Of a stretch of DNA of 64,000 nt, positions 4,476 to 64,000 are shown piece after piece; within the stretch, counting starts at the first letter, position 1; every line of letters starts with the position of its first letter. Position numbers and translations under genes: made by a program. Origin of the DNA: Amoebidium appalachense (Eukaryota; Protista; Ichthyosporea); contig CAVNZM010000016.1 in assembly GCA_963693365.1 (NCBI GenBank), positions 6,927,029 to 6,991,028 of the forward strand. The letters are read 5' to 3'. The notes beneath the pieces are model-generated. The model ran no database searches, was not told the DNA's origin, and worked only from the letters and a program-made list of their open reading frames with translations.

Positions 4476-5835
<1,360 letters not shown>

Positions 5836-5970: not shown

Positions 5971-7401
5971 TCAAATGCAGCCAGTGACATATGTACATGC
6001 TAGGCAACAATGAGCGCCATCGTAGTATATGACACCCCTATTACATATTATGGGTAAGCAGAGGCTAGCATCGGTACTAGCTCCGAAAGAAAGAAAGTTA
6101 AGGCACCGGATCACAATATCATACTGTGCAGCATTAATAAGGTGATCTAGGATAGTCATCTTAAAACGGATATATTGAGGAAGAGAGGAAGAAAAGAGAA
6201 TAAAACCGCCAATAACCTCCGGTTCTAATACATTAGCTAACAGGTTGCATTTATTAATAGATATGCAGCCGCGAGTAAACCGCCCCCCACACATATTACA
6301 CATACGAGCAGGAGACACCAGAAACCGATTACACCGCCAAGCCATAATCATCTTTGCGTTTTTACACCACACCACATTACGAATAAACGAATATAGTATG
6401 TATGAACGAGACTCTCTAACCGTATCCGCCATATAGGCTACTAGTAGTTGGTGTTTTCGCGGTCCTAACACCGGAAGGGACTCAACACGTAGAGTAAAAA
6501 GATATCTATCAGCCATAGACTTGAAACTATTCATATTCACACTATGATCTAGCCGTACCTCCGGTGGGGTCGCCAGCCATTCCACATAACGCTCGGCAAT
6601 GGGCAGAGACGATGGGGAAGGGAAGAGGTAGAGGGGCGAGTCCGGCGGGGATGCGTGTAGCCGGAAGAGCGGGTGGTCCGGGGCACAAGCGGACAGGCGG
6701 GTGATGTGCTCGTGAAATTTAAGGGCTAATTCGTGTACGCGTTGTGATGGTGGTGTGAGTGCGTAGAGAGAATCAAAAAGGCGTCTAGGGATAGGTGTGG
6801 AAAGACCAGTGAGAAACGTACAACAAGTTGTGTAGTGGAAATTATCTATTGATTTGAGGACATTAGTAACAGTATCAGGGGGTGCCATAGCTAGTAAGGG
6901 CAACCCGTATTCAGACAAAGGGCGAATATATGTGCGAAATATACTAAGACGGTTGTATAGGTGGACAGTATGGAAGTAGCAAGATACACATCCCTAAATA
7001 ACCGAAGACACCTGCCTGCACTCTCCACCCGACGGTCGATCATCCGTTTGAAACATATGCCCCATTCGTCCACCGGAATCCCCAAATACTTGTATTCGAT
7101 TGGGCGAGGGAGGGGACTGCCGAAAATACAAACGCCGTCCCATGCCGGTATCGATTTTGATAAAAGGGCAGGCTTTTTGACATTAACCTTCATACCGTTG
7201 CGCTGGCACCAATGTTCAACCACACGAATGTATTGCCGTAGTTCGAGAGGATCGGATGACAATAAGCACAATATCATCGTCGGCAAAAAAGAGGGCGGGG
7301 GGAGCCTGGGATGGCAACCCCCCGTCAATTTGTGCCGCAGAAAGAGTGTCGGCTAAATCATCAATATACAGGTTGAAAAGAAGAGGGCTTAGCTCTGCTA
7401 C
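5971..7401 (-). mobile_element. 5'-truncated, frameshifted non-LTR retrotransposon (RT C-terminal half plus Cys-knuckle region)
   Basis: RT motifs LSPLLFNLYIDDL, LFFADD, W..NGMKVNVKK, YKYLG and IRPLSEYG are spread over three frames. A C-terminal CNMC..C cluster follows. Confidence 0.88.
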
Positions 7402-9098
7402 GCGGCGATCAGCTACGCCTGACTTTCCACAAACCAAGGTGCGCTCTAAATCTGGAAACCAATCATAATCAGAGAAACTACTACATTCCCCAATGAAATT
7501 ACCGCGGCGTCACGGTCATCCTTTGCAAGACCAATGCACCCCTATCCGTGCAGGTCTATCTGTTCGAAGAGAGGGGCTGTAGGACGAGAAGCTTCGCTCA
7601 TCCGTTGATATTACTGTGGTGTCATCCTTTGCGGCTCCCGCCAAATCGGCTCTCGCCAAATCTGACCATCCGCGAACCAAAGGCCCAGCACGTGATCGGC
7701 GACTTATCAGGGCCGAGCCATCACAAACACAACGTTGTAGCTCGAATAGAACTCCCCTTGTAGCATAGTATATGACATTGTCCACGTGTTACCTAGACAT
7801 TATTGGTTTTTTCAATAACTACCCACAGAACAGCTTCTAGCACGAGACATTTACCACAAAGTTTATGGGGGGGATGGTGAATGTGCCTCTGGAGTACGAG
7901 GGTCACACGAAAAAAAACACAACATTGTAGCCCGGATTGAAACCCCCCTTGCATCATATATATATAATATATAATGCGGCATGTGTTACTTTCACGTTAT
8001 TGTTTTCCTAGCACGAGATATTCAGCACACAGTTGGTGTTGTGGGGGCAGTGTACACCTACAATATCAGGGGTACCGCGCGGCAAAAACACCCCCCGGGG
8101 GGGGGGGGGGGGGGGGGGGGTCATGCGTGCGATGGTGCACTAATTATTACGTTAACTAGGCAGGGTATAGCATCAACGTTATTATATGCCATGCTGCTGA
8201 GTTTCTTTGTTTGTACACCCGTCACCAGTCAATTTATTGGTGTTGGCGCCCACCTGTGACACCACCTCGGAAGACTGGGGTCACAAGTGGTGCACACGGC
8301 GGATAAATATCATCAAACTGTAGCTGCAAAAGAATGTGCAATTTTGCATCACTGTCTGGTATTTGCCTATTCCCCTCCCTCCCCCCCCCCCCCCCCCCCC
8401 ACCCCCGCCCCCCTTTTTTTCCACCCCCCCCCCCCCCCACACCGGGCCCCTCCCCCCCCCCCCCCCCCCCCCCCCCCCCAGGCCTCTCCACACCACACAC
8501 ACACGCACCACACACACACACTGCTGCAGAGCTACATGGATACCATCACCATCACACGTGACGATATTTAATTAGTATTGGTGATATTGTACCAATACGT
8601 AACGTATATTGGTAATACATAGTACATAGAATTTATATATCACACGAATATAAATAATACGAGAGCCATATATATGGGGACCCCATCCCGAATCGCACGC
8701 ACGCGTGTATACGTCGCGTTGAAGATGTACTCCATCAACCAACAATTAACATAACAACGAGTACACAGACCTGCCCGGGTGTACATACACGTCTGGGTGT
8801 TCACATCTTCCCCTGGCCAACACATGACCTTTCTACGTAAACCGGGGATGGGCCTTGAGTAAACAGCGTTAACATTATAACTTATTAATAAGCTCCTTCG
8901 GAACGTATGGCAACGGTGTCCGAAATATGTCCACCATATCGCCAACCTCACCGATCCACCGAGAATCGATCCAATCACATTATGTACACCATGGGAATCC
9001 GCTTCTGATAGCAAATAGTGATTGGCTAAAACCAATCCAGTTTGCAATTTTTTGTCCGTTTAAGCCTGTGCGCACGCTGTTTGCTCCATTTCTCTTCC

Positions 9099-9222: not shown

Positions 9223-9839
9223 CGCAGCCACCGTGCTGAATGGTTTCGACCATGCTGCATGCTGCAGCTTCTTCCCCTAACGGCTGAAAGGCCGTTTGAA
9301 GGTTAGTTTTGTGTTGCCTGCTTTTGTGCATGTGGCGTTTGTCTGTCTGGTCTGTGTCCGTACCTGTGATCATTATCATCAGATGTCTGTGTCTGTGTCT
9401 GTGTCTGTGTGCGTGTGTGTGTATGTGTATGTGTGTGCGTGCGTGTGCGTGTGTCTGCTGGCTGCAGATGCACGTTGCCTTTTCACGTTCATGAACCAGC
9501 GACTGCCGTGGGCACTACTTTTGCTGTTAGCACTATAGCTATCATCCCCTCCACCAATCGTTCAAGCTATTTTCTGCTTCTCTAGACTTCATAAGTTCTG
9601 GTCCGGGTTTCCGTCCTTACTATGTTTGAGGTTGGTTCTGTCAACTCTTTTTTTGCCACTCTCAGTCAGCCCCCTCAGTCCCCGCCCCCCCCCCCCCCCC
9701 CCCCCCCCCCACTTCTCGCAAGTAGGATGAGCTAATTCGTAGCTCGAGTTCCTTTACAGGTTTTGCCAACTTGACTTCATGGGCCGTGACGTTGGACACA
9801 CGAGACAATCAGCAGCTCCAAGGCTACCTTATCATCTAG

Positions 9840-10361
9840 AGGTGGGTACCGGCTCTTTGTCCTATGGCTGCTGTTGTTTCCGTTTTTCGTTTCTGTGTTG
9901 CTCTTATAGCACGATGACTGGTTCTTTGATCTGTGCATGTTTAGCATCCATAGGTGGGTACCGGTTCTTTGTCCTATGGCTGCTGTTGTTTCCGTGTTTC
10001 GTTTCTGTGTTGCTCTTATAGCACGATGACTGATCATGTTGGCTTTGTTCAGATTTGCCTGCTTTGATCTGTGCATGTTTAGCACCCAATGGCATAGGTG
10101 GGTACCGGCTCTTTGTCCTGTTAAGGTAAATAAAGTATGGAGGCAAGACCCTGTGGGTCTGGGGCTCTTTGTCCTATGGCTGCTGTTGTTTCCGTGTTTC
10201 GTTTCTGTGTTGCTCTTATAGCACGATGACTGATCATGTTGGCTTTGTCCAGATTTGCCTGGCAGTGCTTTGATCTGTGCATGTTTAGCACCCATAGGTG
10301 GGTACCGGCTCTTTGTCCTGTTAAGGTAAATAAAGTATGGAGGCAAGACCCTGTGGGTCTG
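9840..10361. repeat. Composite modular tandem repeat (~110-200 bp units)
   Basis: GGTGGGTACCGG(C/T)TCTTTGTCCT occurs 4 times and ATGGCTGCTGTTGTTTCCGT...GCACGATGACTG 3 times. GTTAAGGTAAATAAAGTATGGAGGCAAGACCCTGTGGGTCTGG occurs twice. Confidence 0.9.
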
Positions 10362-10420
10362 GCACCTCGTCGTCGTCCTCGATCGTCAAAGGTTTATGTG
10401 GGGTGGGTGGTGGTCCCCGG

Positions 10421-15601: not shown

Positions 15602-15674
15602 GGGGGTGTAGCTCAGATGGTAGAGCGCTCGCTTAGCATGCGAGAGGCACGGGGATCGATACCCCGCACCTCCA
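15602..15674 (+). tRNA. tRNA-Ala-AGC: tRNA-Ala (anticodon AGC)
   Basis: 73-nt cloverleaf. Acceptor stem GGGGGTG/CACCTCC carries the G3:U70 Ala identity pair. D-arm GCTC-AGATGGTA-GAGC, anticodon arm CTCGC-TTAGCAT-GCGAG, T-arm CGGGG-ATCGATA-CCCCG. A TTTTT Pol III terminator follows. Confidence 0.97.
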
Positions 15675-15792
15675 TAGTTTTATTTCTTTTATTTTTTTGT
15701 GTTAGTTTCGCCCCGTTTATCGGCCTATGTAGGTACTGCGAAGCTAACGGGGTATGGCTTTGGGTGAGAAAAAGGAGGTGTTTTTTCAAAGG

Positions 15793-16537
15793 GGCTGAGG
15801 GGAGACACTTGTCGATGTCGGCCTACCACCAACATTTTGAGGGGCCACCCGCACCTACAGCCTGCAATGTTGTCCTGCTCTTCGATCACAAAGCCACATA
15901 CATCCACACAATCAGTGGTGTGCTCTTGCCTCTCAAAGATCTTACCCGCTGGGAAATCCCACTCCAGAACCGTATGCGCTGCCCGGATGATTGCCTGAAG
16001 TACCCGTGTTGGTTCTCAGCTGGGCACCGCAGTCAACAAGCAGTGGCTTCCTACTGAGAAGGGAGCTCATGAGACGATTGCATGCGCATGCCCACGCCTC
16101 AGCAAAGGCATACTTCACAATCCCACATCCAACCCTAGGCTTGTACCCGTGTTGGTTCTCAGCTGGGCACCGCAGTCAACAAGCAGTGGCTTCCTACTGA
16201 GAAGGGAGCTCATGAGACGATTGCATGCGCATGCCCACGCCTCAGCAAAGGCATACTTCACAATCCCACATCCAACCCTAGGCTTGACTTCAGGCAATCA
16301 TCCGGGCAGCGCATACGGTTCTGGAGTGGGATTTCCCAGCGGGCAAGATCTTTGAGAGGCAAGAGCACACCACTGATTGTGTGGATGTATGTGGCTTTGT
16401 GATCGAAGAGCAGGACAACATTGCAGGCTGTAGGTGCGGGTGGCCCCTCAAAATGTTGGTGGTAGGCCGACATCGACATGTGTCTCCCCTCAGCCGCTTG
16501 TTGACTGCGGTGCCCAGCTGAGAACCAACACGGGTAC
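15793..16537. repeat. Foldback: 209-bp inverted repeats around a 2 x 143-bp tandem duplication, plus a 42-bp inverted partial copy
   Basis: A is 15793-16001 and A' is 16287-16495 (2 mismatches seen). B is 16000-16142 and 16143-16285. Segment 16496-16537 is the reverse complement of 16000-16041. Confidence 0.93.
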
Positions 16538-21269: not shown

Positions 21270-27025
<5,756 letters not shown>

Positions 27026-27164
27026 GGGATGAACGATTATGTGTGTGTGTGTAGGGTGGGAAGGGGGTAGGTAGGAGGGTTGGGGGCCCTGGTTGGAGGG
27101 GGGAGGGTGTGTGTGTGTGGGGGGGGGGGGGGGGGGGGGGATGGGGGTGTTGAGTGTGTGGGTG

Positions 27165-27219
<55 letters not shown>

Positions 27220-28277
27220 CGGACAGCGTTGAGTTCTAAACCTTTTCTTTGGGTGATTTTCCCCTGTTCACCTGTCTGTACGTGTTTTTGGCTGAACGAA
27301 TGATTTGCACTTGGGGGCTTGTTTGAGAGGGCCATTGGTGGCTGGTGGCTGTTTGGGGCGAAGAATGAGGTGGCGTGTGGCTGCTGTGGTTTGGATGTGT
27401 GTTTGGGTAGTTGGGGGGGGGGGGGGGGGGGGGGGATGACATGCTGACGGTTAACTGGATTTATGTGGACGATGTGAATGTATATATAGTAATATCACAA
27501 TGCAAGTATGTGCTTGAGAGCAATGGATATTGATCTGTGTGATCTGCCCTTATTTGTATTTATATGCCCACACTTTTTGTATGAGGGTTAGTGCCACAGG
27601 ACTGTATATAGACATAATGAAATTTATGAAATCAAACCCCAGATCCTAGTAGAAGGATATCGAATCTCCCCAGGGTTCATATGTACTTACGTGTTGGTGA
27701 AGGGGGCATATGCATGCATGTGCACAGTATGGCTTGTGGGCTTTCAAGCTTTGGGAGATTGGGATGCAGAGGAAGATGATATATGTTGGGACACGGGCAG
27801 TATGTGCATGAAACAAGTGCTTGTGTACGTGCAGGTCACGTGCATGCTACCATATCGGGCAATAATAATAAATTAGTACATGAACACCTTGGAATCCAAG
27901 ATCATGAAGGTGCTTTGTGATCATATCGAAAGGGTTTACAGCCGAGTTGGCATCCTAGGGTGTGTATTTTTGGTGATCACATGACTATGTACTAAGATTA
28001 TATTTCGTGATCAGATCTGCTTCGGCGGCAAAGCACACTTTTGTGTGGCTATAGTATGCAGTCATAATGCATTCAGTTAAGGCGTATGGTGCACTGAGTG
28101 ATCACATGAACACGTGTGGCTGTGAGAACAGTTGCGAACATGCAGATTTGGACAAGAAGAGAAGGGGGGGGGGGGGGATGCGCCATGCATAAGAGCTACG
28201 AATACACATTCACAATCAGATGTACATTGGACAACACAATTTTGAGTACAAACGTTTAAGCACACAAAGGACCGGTA

Positions 28278-28446
28278 TGCAAAATATATGCATAGCCCAT
28301 CATCAGGGGGGGCCCACGTCATAGACAGGTACCCGAGTTTCGATCGACCCATTCACCTCGTCGACGAAACCCAACTCAGATGTACTGTTTCACTTGAACA
28401 TGGGTGGGTCACCCGTCTTGATCAGGCGAGCAGGGTTACTTTTGCA
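28278..28446 (-). ncRNA. Candidate structured RNA / SINE-like core; diverged solo copy of the element in the 453-bp array
   Basis: Colinear similarity to 42712-42872 with compensatory substitutions in three stems. Family unidentified; strand inferred. Confidence 0.45.
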
Positions 28447-28616
28447 AACAGGCAACATGCAAGGGCAGTGGGAAAGGCCTGGGGTTGAAGTTGCAGCAGT
28501 AAACAGAAGCAAGACAATTATGGTATGGGGTACCATGAATTTCAGCAAGCCACAAGCAGTAAGCATGGCACATATTACTAAAGTGCACCTGTGTGTATGC
28601 CTTGGACGCGTGGGGG

Positions 28617-28653
<37 letters not shown>

Positions 28654-29540
28654 GGATGGGCATGATAATTATGCATTAGAGGATGATTTCGAAAAGGGAG
28701 AAAGAGTGTAGCTCCAACAAAGAACACATACACACAACACGACACATGCATGTACTTGGAAAACAGGCAGATGGCCATTAAAACATGGCGACGATTCAAC
28801 AGTGCAAACATCATATGTTTATACATTTGCGGATAAGTGTGTTGTGTTTTGTGCGGGTACTTGTACGTTTACGTGTTTGTGGTGATTGTGGTGGTGGTTT
28901 GAGTGTGTATGTATGCGCGCGCGTGAGCGTATGTATGTGCTTTTGTATGTGGCAGTGCTGTTCATGAGTAGAAGGGCTAAGAGCGCAGCAGTTTTTGTGT
29001 GAGGGGCCCAAGCCCGTACATAAACCAGAGTTATGTTGATATAAACCAATAAATATTCATCACCAATATTAATTCTGTTTCATTCACCACCGGTGATGGG
29101 CTGAATTATAGCTCACGACCTGAGGCCCATTCAATTACACATTGAGGATTTGTGTAGCGAAATGATTATCCAAATCCCGCCCTCCCCCATACACGGACCA
29201 ATATCGAATATTTGCTGATATTGGCAGGCTCTCACCACTATATATATACACAAACACAGAGAAATAAGATAGGAGACAATTCATAATACGGGAATATTAT
29301 AGTATCAACACCGTTCATCCGGCATTATCCACTATAGGGCCAGTGGCATAGATACCACTACTCTTAACATAATTACATGGGAGCGACGGTTTTTGTTATA
29401 CACGTGTGTGTGCATGTGCACACATGCTAATGTGCCTATGTGTGCTTCCGCGTGGGCGCGGCGCATGTGTGTGGGTGTGTGGGTGTGCGTGTGCAGGCGC
29501 GCCCGTGACGTGTACTTTTGTGCGTGTATTCCCGAGAGAG

Positions 29541-29640: not shown

Positions 29641-31095
29641 CTAGCAGTTAGCAGTAGGCAGGGTAGCTTGCCCGGCCTTCATCCTCTTAGCATAGATGGT
29701 ATCGAGCCGTCTGGTGTATAAGTGCACCCCCCTGTAGAAGGTCACCGCCGCACAGATAATCCCCAGCATGGCCCCTGCACACACAAACCCTTCCGTTAGA
29801 ACCGGCAAATAGGAATACTTATTGGCCCACTTCTCCCCCCTCCCCACCCTTGCCTCTCCCTCTCCCCCCCCCCTCCCCCCGGCCCTGCATCTTGCCCACC
29901 AACACACAGACACATAGACACCATTGCGCACAAACCTATCCATTTCCCAACAGTATAAGATGCATGTAGATATGCACATGCCCCGAGTGTCTGTCCCTCA
30001 AACAGAGGACAAGGGGAAGACAGTGGGAAGAAAAGTGAGGGGGCTTTGCAGGCGACCAAAACGAGACGAGCATCAGCAAGGAAGCGGAGGGAGAGGCGCG
30101 GCGGAGGGGGGGAGGGGGGAGGGGGGTGGAGAAGGTGGGAAGGGAGGGGGCTTTACAACATGTTACAGTACGATTGGGGGGGGGGGGGGGAGGGGAGGGA
30201 TAAAGGGTGGTAGGAGAGGGGGGAGGGGGGGACCAGTCATTCCAGTGGTAAAGTTTCGAGCAATTGACCTCGAACATGAGGGTAAAGGAAGAGGACGGCG
30301 AAGAGGGGGCTTGTGTGTGTGGGTCGGGAGGTGGGGGGGGGGGAAGGGAGGAAGGAGGAGGATAGTGAGTCATTGTAGCGGGCCTCAAGAATTTCTTATA
30401 ATGATCTTGTGAGTGTGGTAATGGGGGGAAGGTTTCGAAGATTACAGTGAGAGCACACTCCCGTGGGTGGGGAAAGTGGGATTCGACAGTGATCATTGTC
30501 TTGCCGGGGGGGGGGGGGGGGGGGGGGGGGGAGGGGGGGGGCTGAGGGCATGGGAAGTGCGGAAGCAAATTTCATCTTGGGATACTCGCAAATAAGGGCA
30601 GAAAGCAGAAACAATATATGCAGAGACAAGAGGGAAGGCACTTGAAAACAAAGCATCATCTGGGGGGGTTTCTATGCATCCATCAAGCAAAGTGTTTCAA
30701 TTCCTTATCCTCTCGAACCCAGGTTAAGTCGGGTCAATCCGTCTTGGGTAAAGATGGGCTGAGTCGTTCAAGAAGCAGCAATCCAAACACAAACAAGCAG
30801 ACCGTAAGTCGGGCTCTACCAGGCACGCATATTTCTACCGGGTGGTGGGGGGGAGAAGGGGGAGGGGGAGACAGAGGGAACAAAGGAGGAGGAGAGAGGG
30901 GATGGATTGGAAGGTTAGGGGGAGGGGGGAGGGGGAAGAAGTGAGATGGGGGTGAGGGGAGGGGGGGGGGGGGGGGGGGAGATGATGGGGGGAGGGGATG
31001 GGGGGAGGAAATGACGGGGAGATCATCTCAACTGGGCATAAGGAGCTGAGAGAACGGGGTGGATGGGGTGGTGGTGCGGAGGTGGAGTGGGGGGG

Positions 31096-42326: not shown

Positions 42327-50054
<7,728 letters not shown>

Positions 50055-52225: not shown

Positions 52226-58916
<6,691 letters not shown>

Positions 58917-62444: not shown

Positions 62445-63087
62445 TTGCTACTGTGCGTGTGTCGATGAATAATGAAGTGGGCTGTTGGGCTTTGTAAAGG
62501 CGATCAAATTGTATGGTTATTTGGGACAAATAAGTCCATGCGTTTGATTGGTTGAAAGCCTGAGAAACGGCTCTCCATGTATCATATAATATGCACCAAT
62601 ACAGGTATAAGAAATTGATCTGTTTAGGCAGAAATATATATAAAAACACTCTTTCTAGGTAAATGTGCTCTATACGTTTTATAGCTGGATTAAATACATA
62701 CACACAAAGCCGGCCACCGGCAGCTTTAAAGTTTCACGATATCCACTGTCATTCAATGAAAAGAGCAGAGCTGAGAGCTGTTCGACATCGTTGATCGGAT
62801 AGGCTGAAGGTCCATTGCTGCTTCAATAAATGCGAATAAATTTTGGCCCCTGGCTTGCGGCCATGGGCCAGAATAACCACTTTTTTATGCGGCCTTAGAC
62901 ATTAGATAATACAAACAAAAGCCGAAAATTTTGCATATTCAGAAACACAAAATGTGCGGTTTCCATTCCCCCGCCCGCCCTCCCCAACTACATAATCGCA
63001 GAGGGCGGGCCGGGCCTGTGTTGCGTAACTGCCAGTACTGTTCGACCAAGGCCTTCTGCGTGTCGGACTCGCCCCGATAAATTCCAC

Positions 63088-64000
63088 GTGATAAAAAACA
63101 CCACTCCCGCTAGACTAGGTGAACCCCTGTCTCAAAAGGAAAGCTTGCGTCGGCTTGCTAGTATGAATCGATTTGGCCCCCCTGCTCGTTGTATTATTGG
63201 TGATACCACTGGAGACTCCCTCATAGACTCTGATAAGTATTTCTCGGAACTGTTTAAAGATAGGACCCCCGCCCAGAAACCTATTGTGTGGCCTGTAGAC
63301 CCATCTATCCCCATAGAATCGATCCTCCCCTTTTTCAGTCCCGATACCATATGGTCTGTGATATCTAGTTATAGCTCTAATAAGTCTTGTGGACCTGATG
63401 GACTCCCTGCTGGGTTTCTTAAAATCCTTGTTCCCTCCTACCCACAAAAGGAAAGTGATCGTGCTATTAAACCTGATCTTACTATCATGTTAAGCTCTCT
63501 CTTTTCTTGGTGTGTTAAATGTGGACATGTCCCGTCATCTTGGTTAGATACCTTAGTGATCCCCATAGTTAAGGACTCTGAGCACGGCCCTCTTTTTTTC
63601 AGAGGGCCGTGCTCTGAGGGCCCCATATCATCCTTTCGCCCCATCACACTAACCCAGGTTGTTCGTAGATTCTTTGAAGCTTGCTTACTTAGGTTATTTG
63701 CACATCACCCTAGGTTTCAATCTATTCTTCACATACACCCATGCCAATCCGCTTTTCGTAAAAACAATTGATGTTATGTTCAAATAATGGCACTGCACGA
63801 TTCTATGCAAGTTGGTGCACGATATGTTGGCTTTATTGATTGGAAAACTGCTTACGATTCTGTCTCCCCTGGTCTCCTATGGGAAAAGCTTGCTGCACGG
63901 GGTGTACCTCACTGCATTGGTGTTCTGTTAGAAGCACTCTTGTCTTAAACCTATGGTAGAGCTGTGGTTAATGGGCATCTTTCATGTGGTTTTGCTCGTA
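63088..64000 (+). mobile_element. Decayed non-LTR retrotransposon reverse transcriptase, N-terminal half, running off the right window edge
   Basis: KSCGPDGLP, VPSSW, FRPITL, QSAFR, FIDWKTAYDSV, LWEKL..RGVP and VNG lie in one frame. Stops interrupt it at 63769-63771 (TGA) and 63946-63948 (TAA). Confidence 0.9.

Follow-up and report, generated by a model that had tools for sequence, protein, structure and literature searches.

A candidate split-core hammerhead ribozyme in a tandem, G-run-bounded repeat of a likely ichthyosporean genome

Which RNA, if any, is encoded by the conserved stretch at 28278-28446 of the window, the 64-kb piece of DNA that was analysed as a whole? A preliminary description made from the sequence had reported a foldable element of about 160 nt with five conserved motifs, a diverged relative at 42712-42872 on the minus strand, and no resemblance to any known ribozyme. 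We agree that it is a conserved structured RNA read from the minus strand rather than a MITE. We propose, with a probability of roughly two in three, that its intact copies would constitute a family of active hammerhead ribozymes whose core is split, a reading that depends on a structural model. The coordinates of all features are collected in Table 1.

The repeat unit and its genomic setting

The relationship between the two copies is clear. The solo copy (28286-28450) aligns with 42713-42878 over 172 columns at 72% identity (E 1e-14), and three further copies match the solo stretch equally well. The relative is indeed homologous, but it is not a single copy: it belongs to a tandem array of 4.1 copies of a 453-bp unit, composed of four full units with 0 differences among them and a 55-bp partial unit. 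The solo copy had been described as an entity of about 169 bp, and its extent also has to be revised, to a whole unit of about 430 bp bounded by G-runs. Compared with the array unit, this one is 71% identical across the core, with identity falling to 55% and 51% in the two flanks.

G-runs mark the boundaries of the family. The array is flanked by them on both sides, with no other duplication there, and a C7 run closes each unit on the minus strand. The three 3' ends that can be recognised all lie next to genomic G-runs (37, 14, and 34 nt long, 7 of the counted G's being the unit's own) at a distance of 0-1 nt; the background is 0.4% of positions within 3 nt of such a run. At these true boundaries there is neither a terminal inverted repeat nor a target-site duplication, the two features that the preliminary description had named as marks of an ordinary MITE. 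Among the truncated ends in the window, none starts at the predicted cut.

The additional fragments mentioned in that description were recovered by BLAST at 53856-53888 (E 6e-4), 46816-46840, and 44981-45012, the first two also by nhmmer. A weak 3'-end-like fragment was seen at 45402-45498 (66%, E 6e-4). Two other weak matches, 30730-30777 and 24617-24634, were discarded as chance; they sit in open frames resembling coding exons. The intronic copies had been said to share one orientation relative to host transcription, and all four intronic loci do lie sense to their host genes; this is not statistically significant because three of the four share one gene.

The window is eukaryotic DNA and carries GT-AG introns and dense microsatellites. 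The array occupies, in sense orientation, the intron 45231-42462 of a minus-strand RRP40 gene, which was called from RRP40_S1 and KH_6 Pfam matches on three exons; the next in-frame exon was read from the sequence and has no Pfam match by itself. RRP40 (42462-47514, minus strand) is an RNA exosome subunit, and three pieces of the family lie sense in its introns. The solo copy lies downstream of a minus-strand PAP2 gene in the same orientation, as reported before. The PAP2 protein has five matches at E up to 1e-20, including one identical transcript product; three of the others carry the prefix Ihof (48-54%) and one the prefix CFRG (38%), which we take to be Ichthyophonus and Creolimax. The host is likely an ichthyosporean, one of the single-celled relatives of animals. 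A multi-exon gene at 21300-27030 on the plus strand, which resembles an AlkB/ALKBH5-like dioxygenase, converges on PAP2; its single exons have no Pfam match.

The unit reads as non-coding, with no Pfam match in the scanned frames of its ~450 bp. A Pfam scan of 114 of the 224 listed non-repetitive frames, chosen or added, returned no reverse transcriptase and no GIY-YIG domain, and within the 64-kb window there is no LINE sharing the unit's tail and no Penelope-like partner. Two open frames are recorded here in their own right. At 62899-63768 (plus strand) there is a frame of 290 aa (P0007) with no Pfam or PDB match; its motifs GPDG, IPIVK, FRPITL, and Q.AF are, we assume, those of the N-terminal part of non-LTR reverse transcriptases, and the frame is possibly a LINE running past the window end. 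At 5974-6993 (minus strand) lies a frame of 340 aa (P0006) with no Pfam match and no hammerhead pattern downstream, which to our eye resembles the C-terminal part of a non-LTR ORF. Its atlas neighbours are eukaryotic clusters at 0.93-0.94, and the nearest named family is zf-RVT (27% of members, 0.90). Diverged repeats surround P0006 (4476-4718 vs 5330-5555; 5086-5281 vs 7402-7725).

Other repeats in the window include a 200-bp x2 tandem at 9966-10362 (repeat region 9829-10362). In the region 15602-16499, a tRNA-Ala(AGC) is followed by a 213-bp inverted repeat of 99% identity (15789-16001 / 16287-16499) which encloses an exact 143-bp x2 tandem. A 366-aa intronless cysteine-rich protein (P0008; 61350-62447, minus strand) has a likely signal peptide, a short tandem repeat, an acidic tail, and a weak Dickkopf_N match below the cut-off.

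Table 1. Positions of the element copies and of the predicted ribozyme parts, numbered along the window.
Feature	Position	Strand	Remarks
Solo monomer, second subfamily, apparently decayed	28178..28607	-	Between G-runs 28164-28177 and 28620-28652; intergenic
Structured core of solo copy	28278..28446	-	
Solo block S: stem III 5' strand, G16.2-U16.1-U17, stem I 5' strand (3 G-C)	28370..28380	-	
Solo predicted cut	between 28373 and 28372	-	
Solo block G: stem II 3' strand, GAAA 28341-28338, stem III 3' strand	28332..28351	-	
Solo block C: stem I 3' strand, CUGAUGA 28306-28300, extra U 28299, GGG	28294..28312	-	
Solo putative upstream stem II strand	28405..28410	-	G10.1 at 28410
Putative kink-turn, non-bulged strand	28322..28324	-	Broken in solo copy
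Tandem array	42591..44457	-	Between G-runs 42561-42597 and 44458-44474; RRP40 intron
Intact predicted ribozyme domain, first unit	42712..42872	-	Repeated at +453, +906, +1359
Array block S: GUU triplet, stem I 5' strand	42795..42801	-	
Array predicted cuts	42799/42798, 43252/43251, 43705/43704, 44158/44157	-	
Array block G: stem II 3' strand, C11.1, G12 A13 A14 A15.1	42764..42772	-	
Array block C core: stem I 3' strand (4 bp), CUGAGGA 42733-42727, extra U 42726	42726..42737	-	
Closing helix P1	42872-42861 / 42725-42712	-	
Hairpin P2, 9 bp, self-complementary loop	42837..42859	-	Pair probabilities 0.83-0.99
Putative upstream stem II strand GACCC (10.1-10.5)	42831..42835	-	Pairs with 42772-42768
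I-II interaction helix (predicted)	42829-42820 / 42748-42740	-	
Predicted kink-turn	bulge 42819-42817; G.A 42816/42749, A.G 42815/42750	-	
Stem III	42807-42800 / 42764-42757	-	
3'-end fragment	44981..45012	-	Adjoins G-run 44947-44980; same RRP40 intron as array; BLAST E 0.08
Short weak fragment	46816..46840	-	Upstream RRP40 intron; BLAST E 0.22, also nhmmer
Fragment opening at block C	53856..53943	+	Acyl-CoA dehydrogenase gene intron

A hammerhead core and the proposed wiring of its stem II

On the minus strand, each copy carries all five motifs named in the preliminary description, and the three best conserved of them can be recognised as the blocks of a hammerhead ribozyme. On that strand they run in the order cleavage site, GAAA, CUGANGA, which is the non-circular order S-G-C. 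Block S comprises the 5' side of stem III, a GUU triplet, and the 5' side of stem I; block G comprises a C, GAAA, and the 3' side of stem III; and block C comprises the 3' side of stem I, CUGANGA, and an extra U. Both variants keep every core letter (C3-U4-G5-A6-N7-G8-A9, G12-A13-A14-A15.1, U16.1-H17, and C11.1), and the only core position that differs between them is N7, which is free to vary. In the array, the A15.1-U16.1 and G10.1-C11.1 pairs can form, and stems I, II, and III have 4, 5, and 8-9 bp; stem I is reduced to 3 bp in the solo copy and shows a double change at 1.3/2.3 (A-U vs G-C). Stem III differs between the variants by two U-A vs U-G changes. The linker between blocks S and G is about 22 nt long, and G12 stands 34-35 nt ahead of C3.

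A descriptor run over six block orders and both strands matched five copies in the window, all of them S-G-C, and gave no match in 40 block-shuffled windows. Over 1000 shuffles, the chance rate per window was 0.004 for the core with stems I and III, 0.001 once the upstream stem II described below was added, and 0 with the I-II helix as well, for descriptors that were composed post hoc, after the motifs had been seen. The circular orders CGS, GSC, and SCG (hammerhead types I, II, and III) had no match in the window, and neither unit has a CUGANGA on the plus strand that would indicate a second hammerhead. At gathering score, Rfam finds only tRNA-Ala in the window and leaves both copies blank; up to E 10, the sole entry at either copy is a low-complexity match at 28538-28643. 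Resemblances to 5S rRNA, U1, HDV-like, twister, and pistol RNAs were dropped, being without Rfam support.

The unusual feature is how stem II is made. The bases directly after CUGANGA-U form two pairs with the strand before GAAA and then meet a G.G mismatch, in both copies. A conserved upstream GACCC can form 5-6 Watson-Crick pairs with the same stem II 3' strand (-10.2 and -10.8 kcal/mol); the contiguous strand with its mismatch reaches -7.2 and -5.1 kcal/mol. The contiguous GGG is held in P1 by a 5' CCC with a pair probability of 0.82 in the array, and GGG pairs with the 5' CCC in the solo copy too, while GACCC is left unpaired in the minimum-energy fold of the array. We infer from this modelling that stem II would be formed by the upstream GACCC and not by the bases after CUGANGA, and that block C is likely split between A9 and G10.1 by an inserted P1/P2 junction. 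Such a split would explain why the 5' motifs are conserved.

The predicted surroundings of the core fit together. A single purine separates the upstream stem II strand from a 9-bp I-II helix, and the other strand of this helix leads into stem I. We read the mid stem of the preliminary description as this I-II interaction helix because its spacing matches that of the I-II helix of HRIMA-1. In the array, a 3-nt bulge followed by G.A and A.G between the I-II helix and stem III gives the signature of a kink-turn, with U.U at 3b.3n and an irregular helix beyond. Pair probabilities in the array are 0.81-1.0 for P1, P2, the 6-bp mid-stem arm, and stem III, and 0.44-0.62 for the 3-bp arm. The hairpin in the S-G linker contains a 10-nt palindrome (42782-42791 in the array, 28358-28367 with a different sequence in the solo copy). 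The P2 loops, at about 42844-42851 and 28419-28424, are self-complementary as well, so that both terminal loops have this property in both variants; they are possible dimerisation signals. A strand-swapped dimer held by the palindromes was rejected by reasoning, as the crossing stems would remain.

The main competitor keeps the hammerhead and dispenses with the split: it would be an unsplit type-SGC ribozyme in which GGGCU directly after CUGANGA-U makes stem II and the 5' hairpin has some other role. We consider this improbable, though it fares best among the rivals. A G after the extra U is what marks published SGC ribozymes, as far as they are set out in PMC10085705. The contiguous strand offers G-C, G-U, and four more pairs past the mismatch, one of which (10.6/11.6) is C-G in one variant and A-U in the other, and with the letter that is common among contigs at 28350 a U-A pair would form in that register. 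Against it stand the G.G at the third pair in both copies and the weaker duplex, the sequestration of the strand by the 5' CCC with no I-II helix after it, and the conserved upstream GACCC, which would be left without a role.

Folding statistics add little to the choice of strand. The minus strand of the solo copy folds no better than its shuffles (z -1.17, 25 of 200 as good) and that of the array copy modestly better (z -2.5); folding energy does not give the strand because the plus strands score z -1.96 (solo) and -3.16 (array). Folded as a circle, the whole unit gains no stability over its shuffled versions (z -0.55, 60 shuffles). In the two-variant alignment, double changes affect 6 of 36 consensus pairs, some of them in poorly aligned columns. 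The covariation signal comes from two genomic variants, too few for a covariation statistic, and from contig differences within a single sample. Of the three stems said to covary, the mid stem pairs in both copies with one clean double change (A-U vs U-G) and the apical stem pairs in both with two U-A vs U-G changes. The claim falls for the closing stem: the two stems are out of register in the alignment and absent from the shared consensus fold, so they occupy non-homologous columns and are not covariation.

Decay of the solo copy and the remaining alternatives

A comparison with contigs helps to separate subfamily differences from decay. These contigs come from two runs (X1 and X2) of one sample in one study, are RNA by guess only, and were scored for differences away from contig ends only; X3, a third run of that sample, gave no aligned contig. 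They differ from the solo copy consistently: four letters are absent at 28340, two at 28381, and one at 28328, and two letters are added at 28425-28426 in P2. Contig letters at 28323 and 28324 restore the kink-turn pattern (G.A, A.G, A.G), with a bulge unlike that of the array. We place the solo copy in a second subfamily because the contigs share these consistent differences, the bulge included.

Within this subfamily, the solo copy itself appears from its letters to be decayed. A 4-nt TCGA duplication at about 28343-28346 displaces stem II from GAAA; it corresponds to the four letters that the contigs lack at 28340. The exact solo core has no match among the contig pieces listed. Not every contig letter favours the model. 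With the letter most common at 28350, pair 10.5-11.5 becomes a C.A unless 28406 changes too, a pair-restoring change seen in one loose contig end only, and at 28435 a letter of low depth disrupts a pair of P1. The divergence of the solo copy from the array is thus in part subfamily covariation and in part decay, and the solo copy is probably inactive.

In the array core, four of the four listed contig differences leave the model intact or improve it, a tally short of significance (p about 0.13), and core and flank differ at similar rates (4/161 vs 14/285; p 0.32). Contig cover is absent over 27943-28250 and 28559-28789, and the solo unit's 5' flank (28459-28521) is matched by many contigs. Summed contig depth is far higher over the element than over flanking sequence, a measure that cannot rank expression. 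The contigs cover the whole unit, and an X2 contig bridges the head-to-tail joint by 59 letters and X1 contigs by 20; circle and tandem are indistinguishable in them, and the joint is explained equally by tandem DNA or by read-through.

The fold might be derived from a hammerhead and no longer cleave, serving as a protein-binding site or as a dimerisation or packaging signal for the reverse transcriptase that mobilises it. A short stem I, the sense position in the RRP40 intron, and a window in which no element end falls at the cut site would suit such a role, as would two hairpins with self-complementary loops; one Penelope-like element is reported, in the part of PMC11167929 drawn on here, not to have required hammerhead cleavage to insert in vitro. 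We think this distinctly unlikely, somewhat more so than the unsplit ribozyme: all catalytic letters are kept and N7 is the one that varies, in copies whose flanks have drifted to 51-55% identity.

Further behind comes a vault-like or tRNA-derived product of Pol III, either a small RNA or a SINE, whose A and B boxes are internal; to this reading we give very little credence. The preliminary description had seen an A-box-like and a B-box-like motif that pair with each other, as in vault RNA panhandles. The pairing exists, as hammerhead stem III; the B-box does not stand up, since at 3-4 mismatches in 11 positions of the strict pattern it is better seen as the GAAA strand. By the consensus patterns applied here, the A-box-like match has 1-2 mismatches and each copy has two loose B-box matches, one of them in the P2 loop. 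There is no Rfam match up to E 10 to such an RNA, ARAGORN gives tRNA-Ala only, and the unit is a 450-bp, tandem, G-run-bounded repeat. The boxes do not account for CUGANGA or for the pseudoknot pairs, and the vault-like panhandle is what remains as a nested scaffold once the two pseudoknotted stems are omitted.

The last alternative, a DNA element (MITE or satellite) with an incidental hairpin, has in its favour a 7-bp terminal inverted repeat in the solo copy and a folding z-score that is not significant, and we regard it as largely refuted already, with homology that extends far past the inverted repeat to the G-runs, inverted repeats out of register between the two copies, G-U pairs kept on one strand, and the low chance rate of the hammerhead pattern (0.004 per window).

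Relation to known ribozymes and retroelements

The split-core reading places the element closest to type SGC. The S-G-C order was validated as that type by Eckert 2023 (PMC10085705), where the extra U is part of the default descriptor. The portion of that paper used here draws its SGC examples from metatranscriptomes and from no genome of a known organism, bar one weak GCS candidate; they are up to 104 nt long, with an S-G linker of 2-3 nt. Its descriptor allows linkers of at most 8 and 15 nt, and sets minima of 4 bp for stem I and 3 bp for stem II; the paper assumes that block C is uninterruptible. The element shares with SGC/HRIMA-1 the block order, all core letters, and the extra U after CUGANGA; GUU triplets also occur among the SGC variants presented in PMC10085705. 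A further resemblance to HRIMA-1 is the succession of a 5-nt stem II strand, a single purine, and an I-II helix; a count by eye gives this layout for about 38 of 52 rows displayed in the part of the PMC10085705 supplement at hand.

The differences are several. The element is a genomic eukaryotic repeat with a palindromic hairpin in the S-G linker, an inserted P1/P2, and a predicted kink-turn. Its stem II strand would lie upstream; a contiguous block C gives the two pairs and G.G noted above. Both linkers are longer than the descriptor allows, and the solo stem I of 3 bp is below its limit. In our model, the P1/P2 junction would take the place of the single extra U of published SGC at the A9-to-G10.1 link, and the kink-turn would fold the I-II helix back alongside stem III, bringing block C to the core. 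PMC10085705 raises, in the passages considered, a geometric puzzle over direct links between the I-II helix and stem III, and a sharp kink-turn bend would address it.

The kink-turn itself is predicted from a sequence pattern. In the relevant parts of PMC5061560, PMC4382518, and PMC5689011, the motif (Kt-7, box C/D) consists of a 3-nt bulge followed by G.A and A.G, and a G at 3n permits ion-induced folding (PMC4382518). By its contig letters the second subfamily has 3n = G, unlike the array with its U.U at 3b.3n; in the solo copy the motif is broken.

The unit also recalls two groups of mobile elements. Non-LTR retrozymes, as characterised in the available parts of PMC7229834 and bioRxiv 10.64898/2026.07.22.740005, are animal elements with type I hammerheads, a GC content <50%, and highly self-paired circles. 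Plentiful monomer RNAs, linear as well as circular, are a further mark of that group. Common to them and to this element are non-coding tandem units (150-450 bp in theirs, by the same portion of PMC7229834), one hammerhead per unit, solo monomers, and a proposed course of cleavage, circularisation, and reinsertion (for theirs, the sections used of PMC7229834 and bioRxiv 10.64898/2026.07.22.740005). Unlike them, it has a non-circular hammerhead that is not type I, and its unit is not unusually stable as a circle. The Naiad/Chlamys elements of Craig 2021 (PMC8557442) show, in the portion used, a (C)n target bias and head-to-tail non-autonomous copies such as MRC1; for these elements the same portion gives no clear target-site duplication or canonical hammerhead and eight half-core cases with halves 35-50 nt apart. 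Non-autonomous Penelope-like elements insert into (C)n or (CA)n tracts as partial tandems. Our element likewise forms a head-to-tail partial tandem at G-runs, with half cores 34-35 nt apart; unlike Chlamys/Naiad, it has no autonomous partner or shared 3' end in the window. The main text of Craig 2021 (PMC8557442) has no mention of ichthyosporeans.

Relatives were sought with pattern scans, which returned 0, 1, and 5 loci in viral contigs, 1 in metagenomes, and 4 in prokaryote genomes. We dismissed these 11 loci (L001-L011) as chance, as they had stems only as forced by the pattern or were without CUGANGA. In the literature covered, which excludes subscription journals, we found no paper on split-core wiring or on ribozymes in ichthyosporean repeats. 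The element would behave as a type-SGC hammerhead carried by a retrozyme-like unit, and it is outside the published definitions of both SGC and non-LTR retrozymes.

A life cycle can be proposed on this model. The transcript would be cut after GUU once per unit, yielding 453-nt monomers that a host ligase would circularise. The C7 of the unit would anneal to a nicked genomic G-run, and a borrowed reverse transcriptase would then round the circle 4.1 times and stop at random. The unit would fit a non-autonomous retrozyme or Penelope-like element. A point against the model is the sense position of the array in the RRP40 intron, since rapid cleavage there ought to damage the transcript of the host gene.

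A bolder version, which we hold as a conjecture that is probably wrong in at least one of its parts, combines three ideas. The core-split, non-circular hammerhead may be a fourth opening and an ancient, pre-animal retroelement ribozyme, with the kink-turn acting as a switch gated by an L7Ae/15.5K-type protein. The switch may be silent in the host intron and active in the element's particle, with the circle reverse-transcribed from a poly-G primer. The same split-core fold may be the missing ribozyme behind the half cores of Naiad/Chlamys.

If the split-core reading is true, it would extend the SGC class to eukaryotic chromosomes outside animals and would break the assumption that block C is indivisible. 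It would also provide a natural kink-turn-containing ribozyme for structural work and switch design. Standard descriptors and Rfam miss such split wiring, and this bears on Penelope-like elements that seemingly have no ribozymes.
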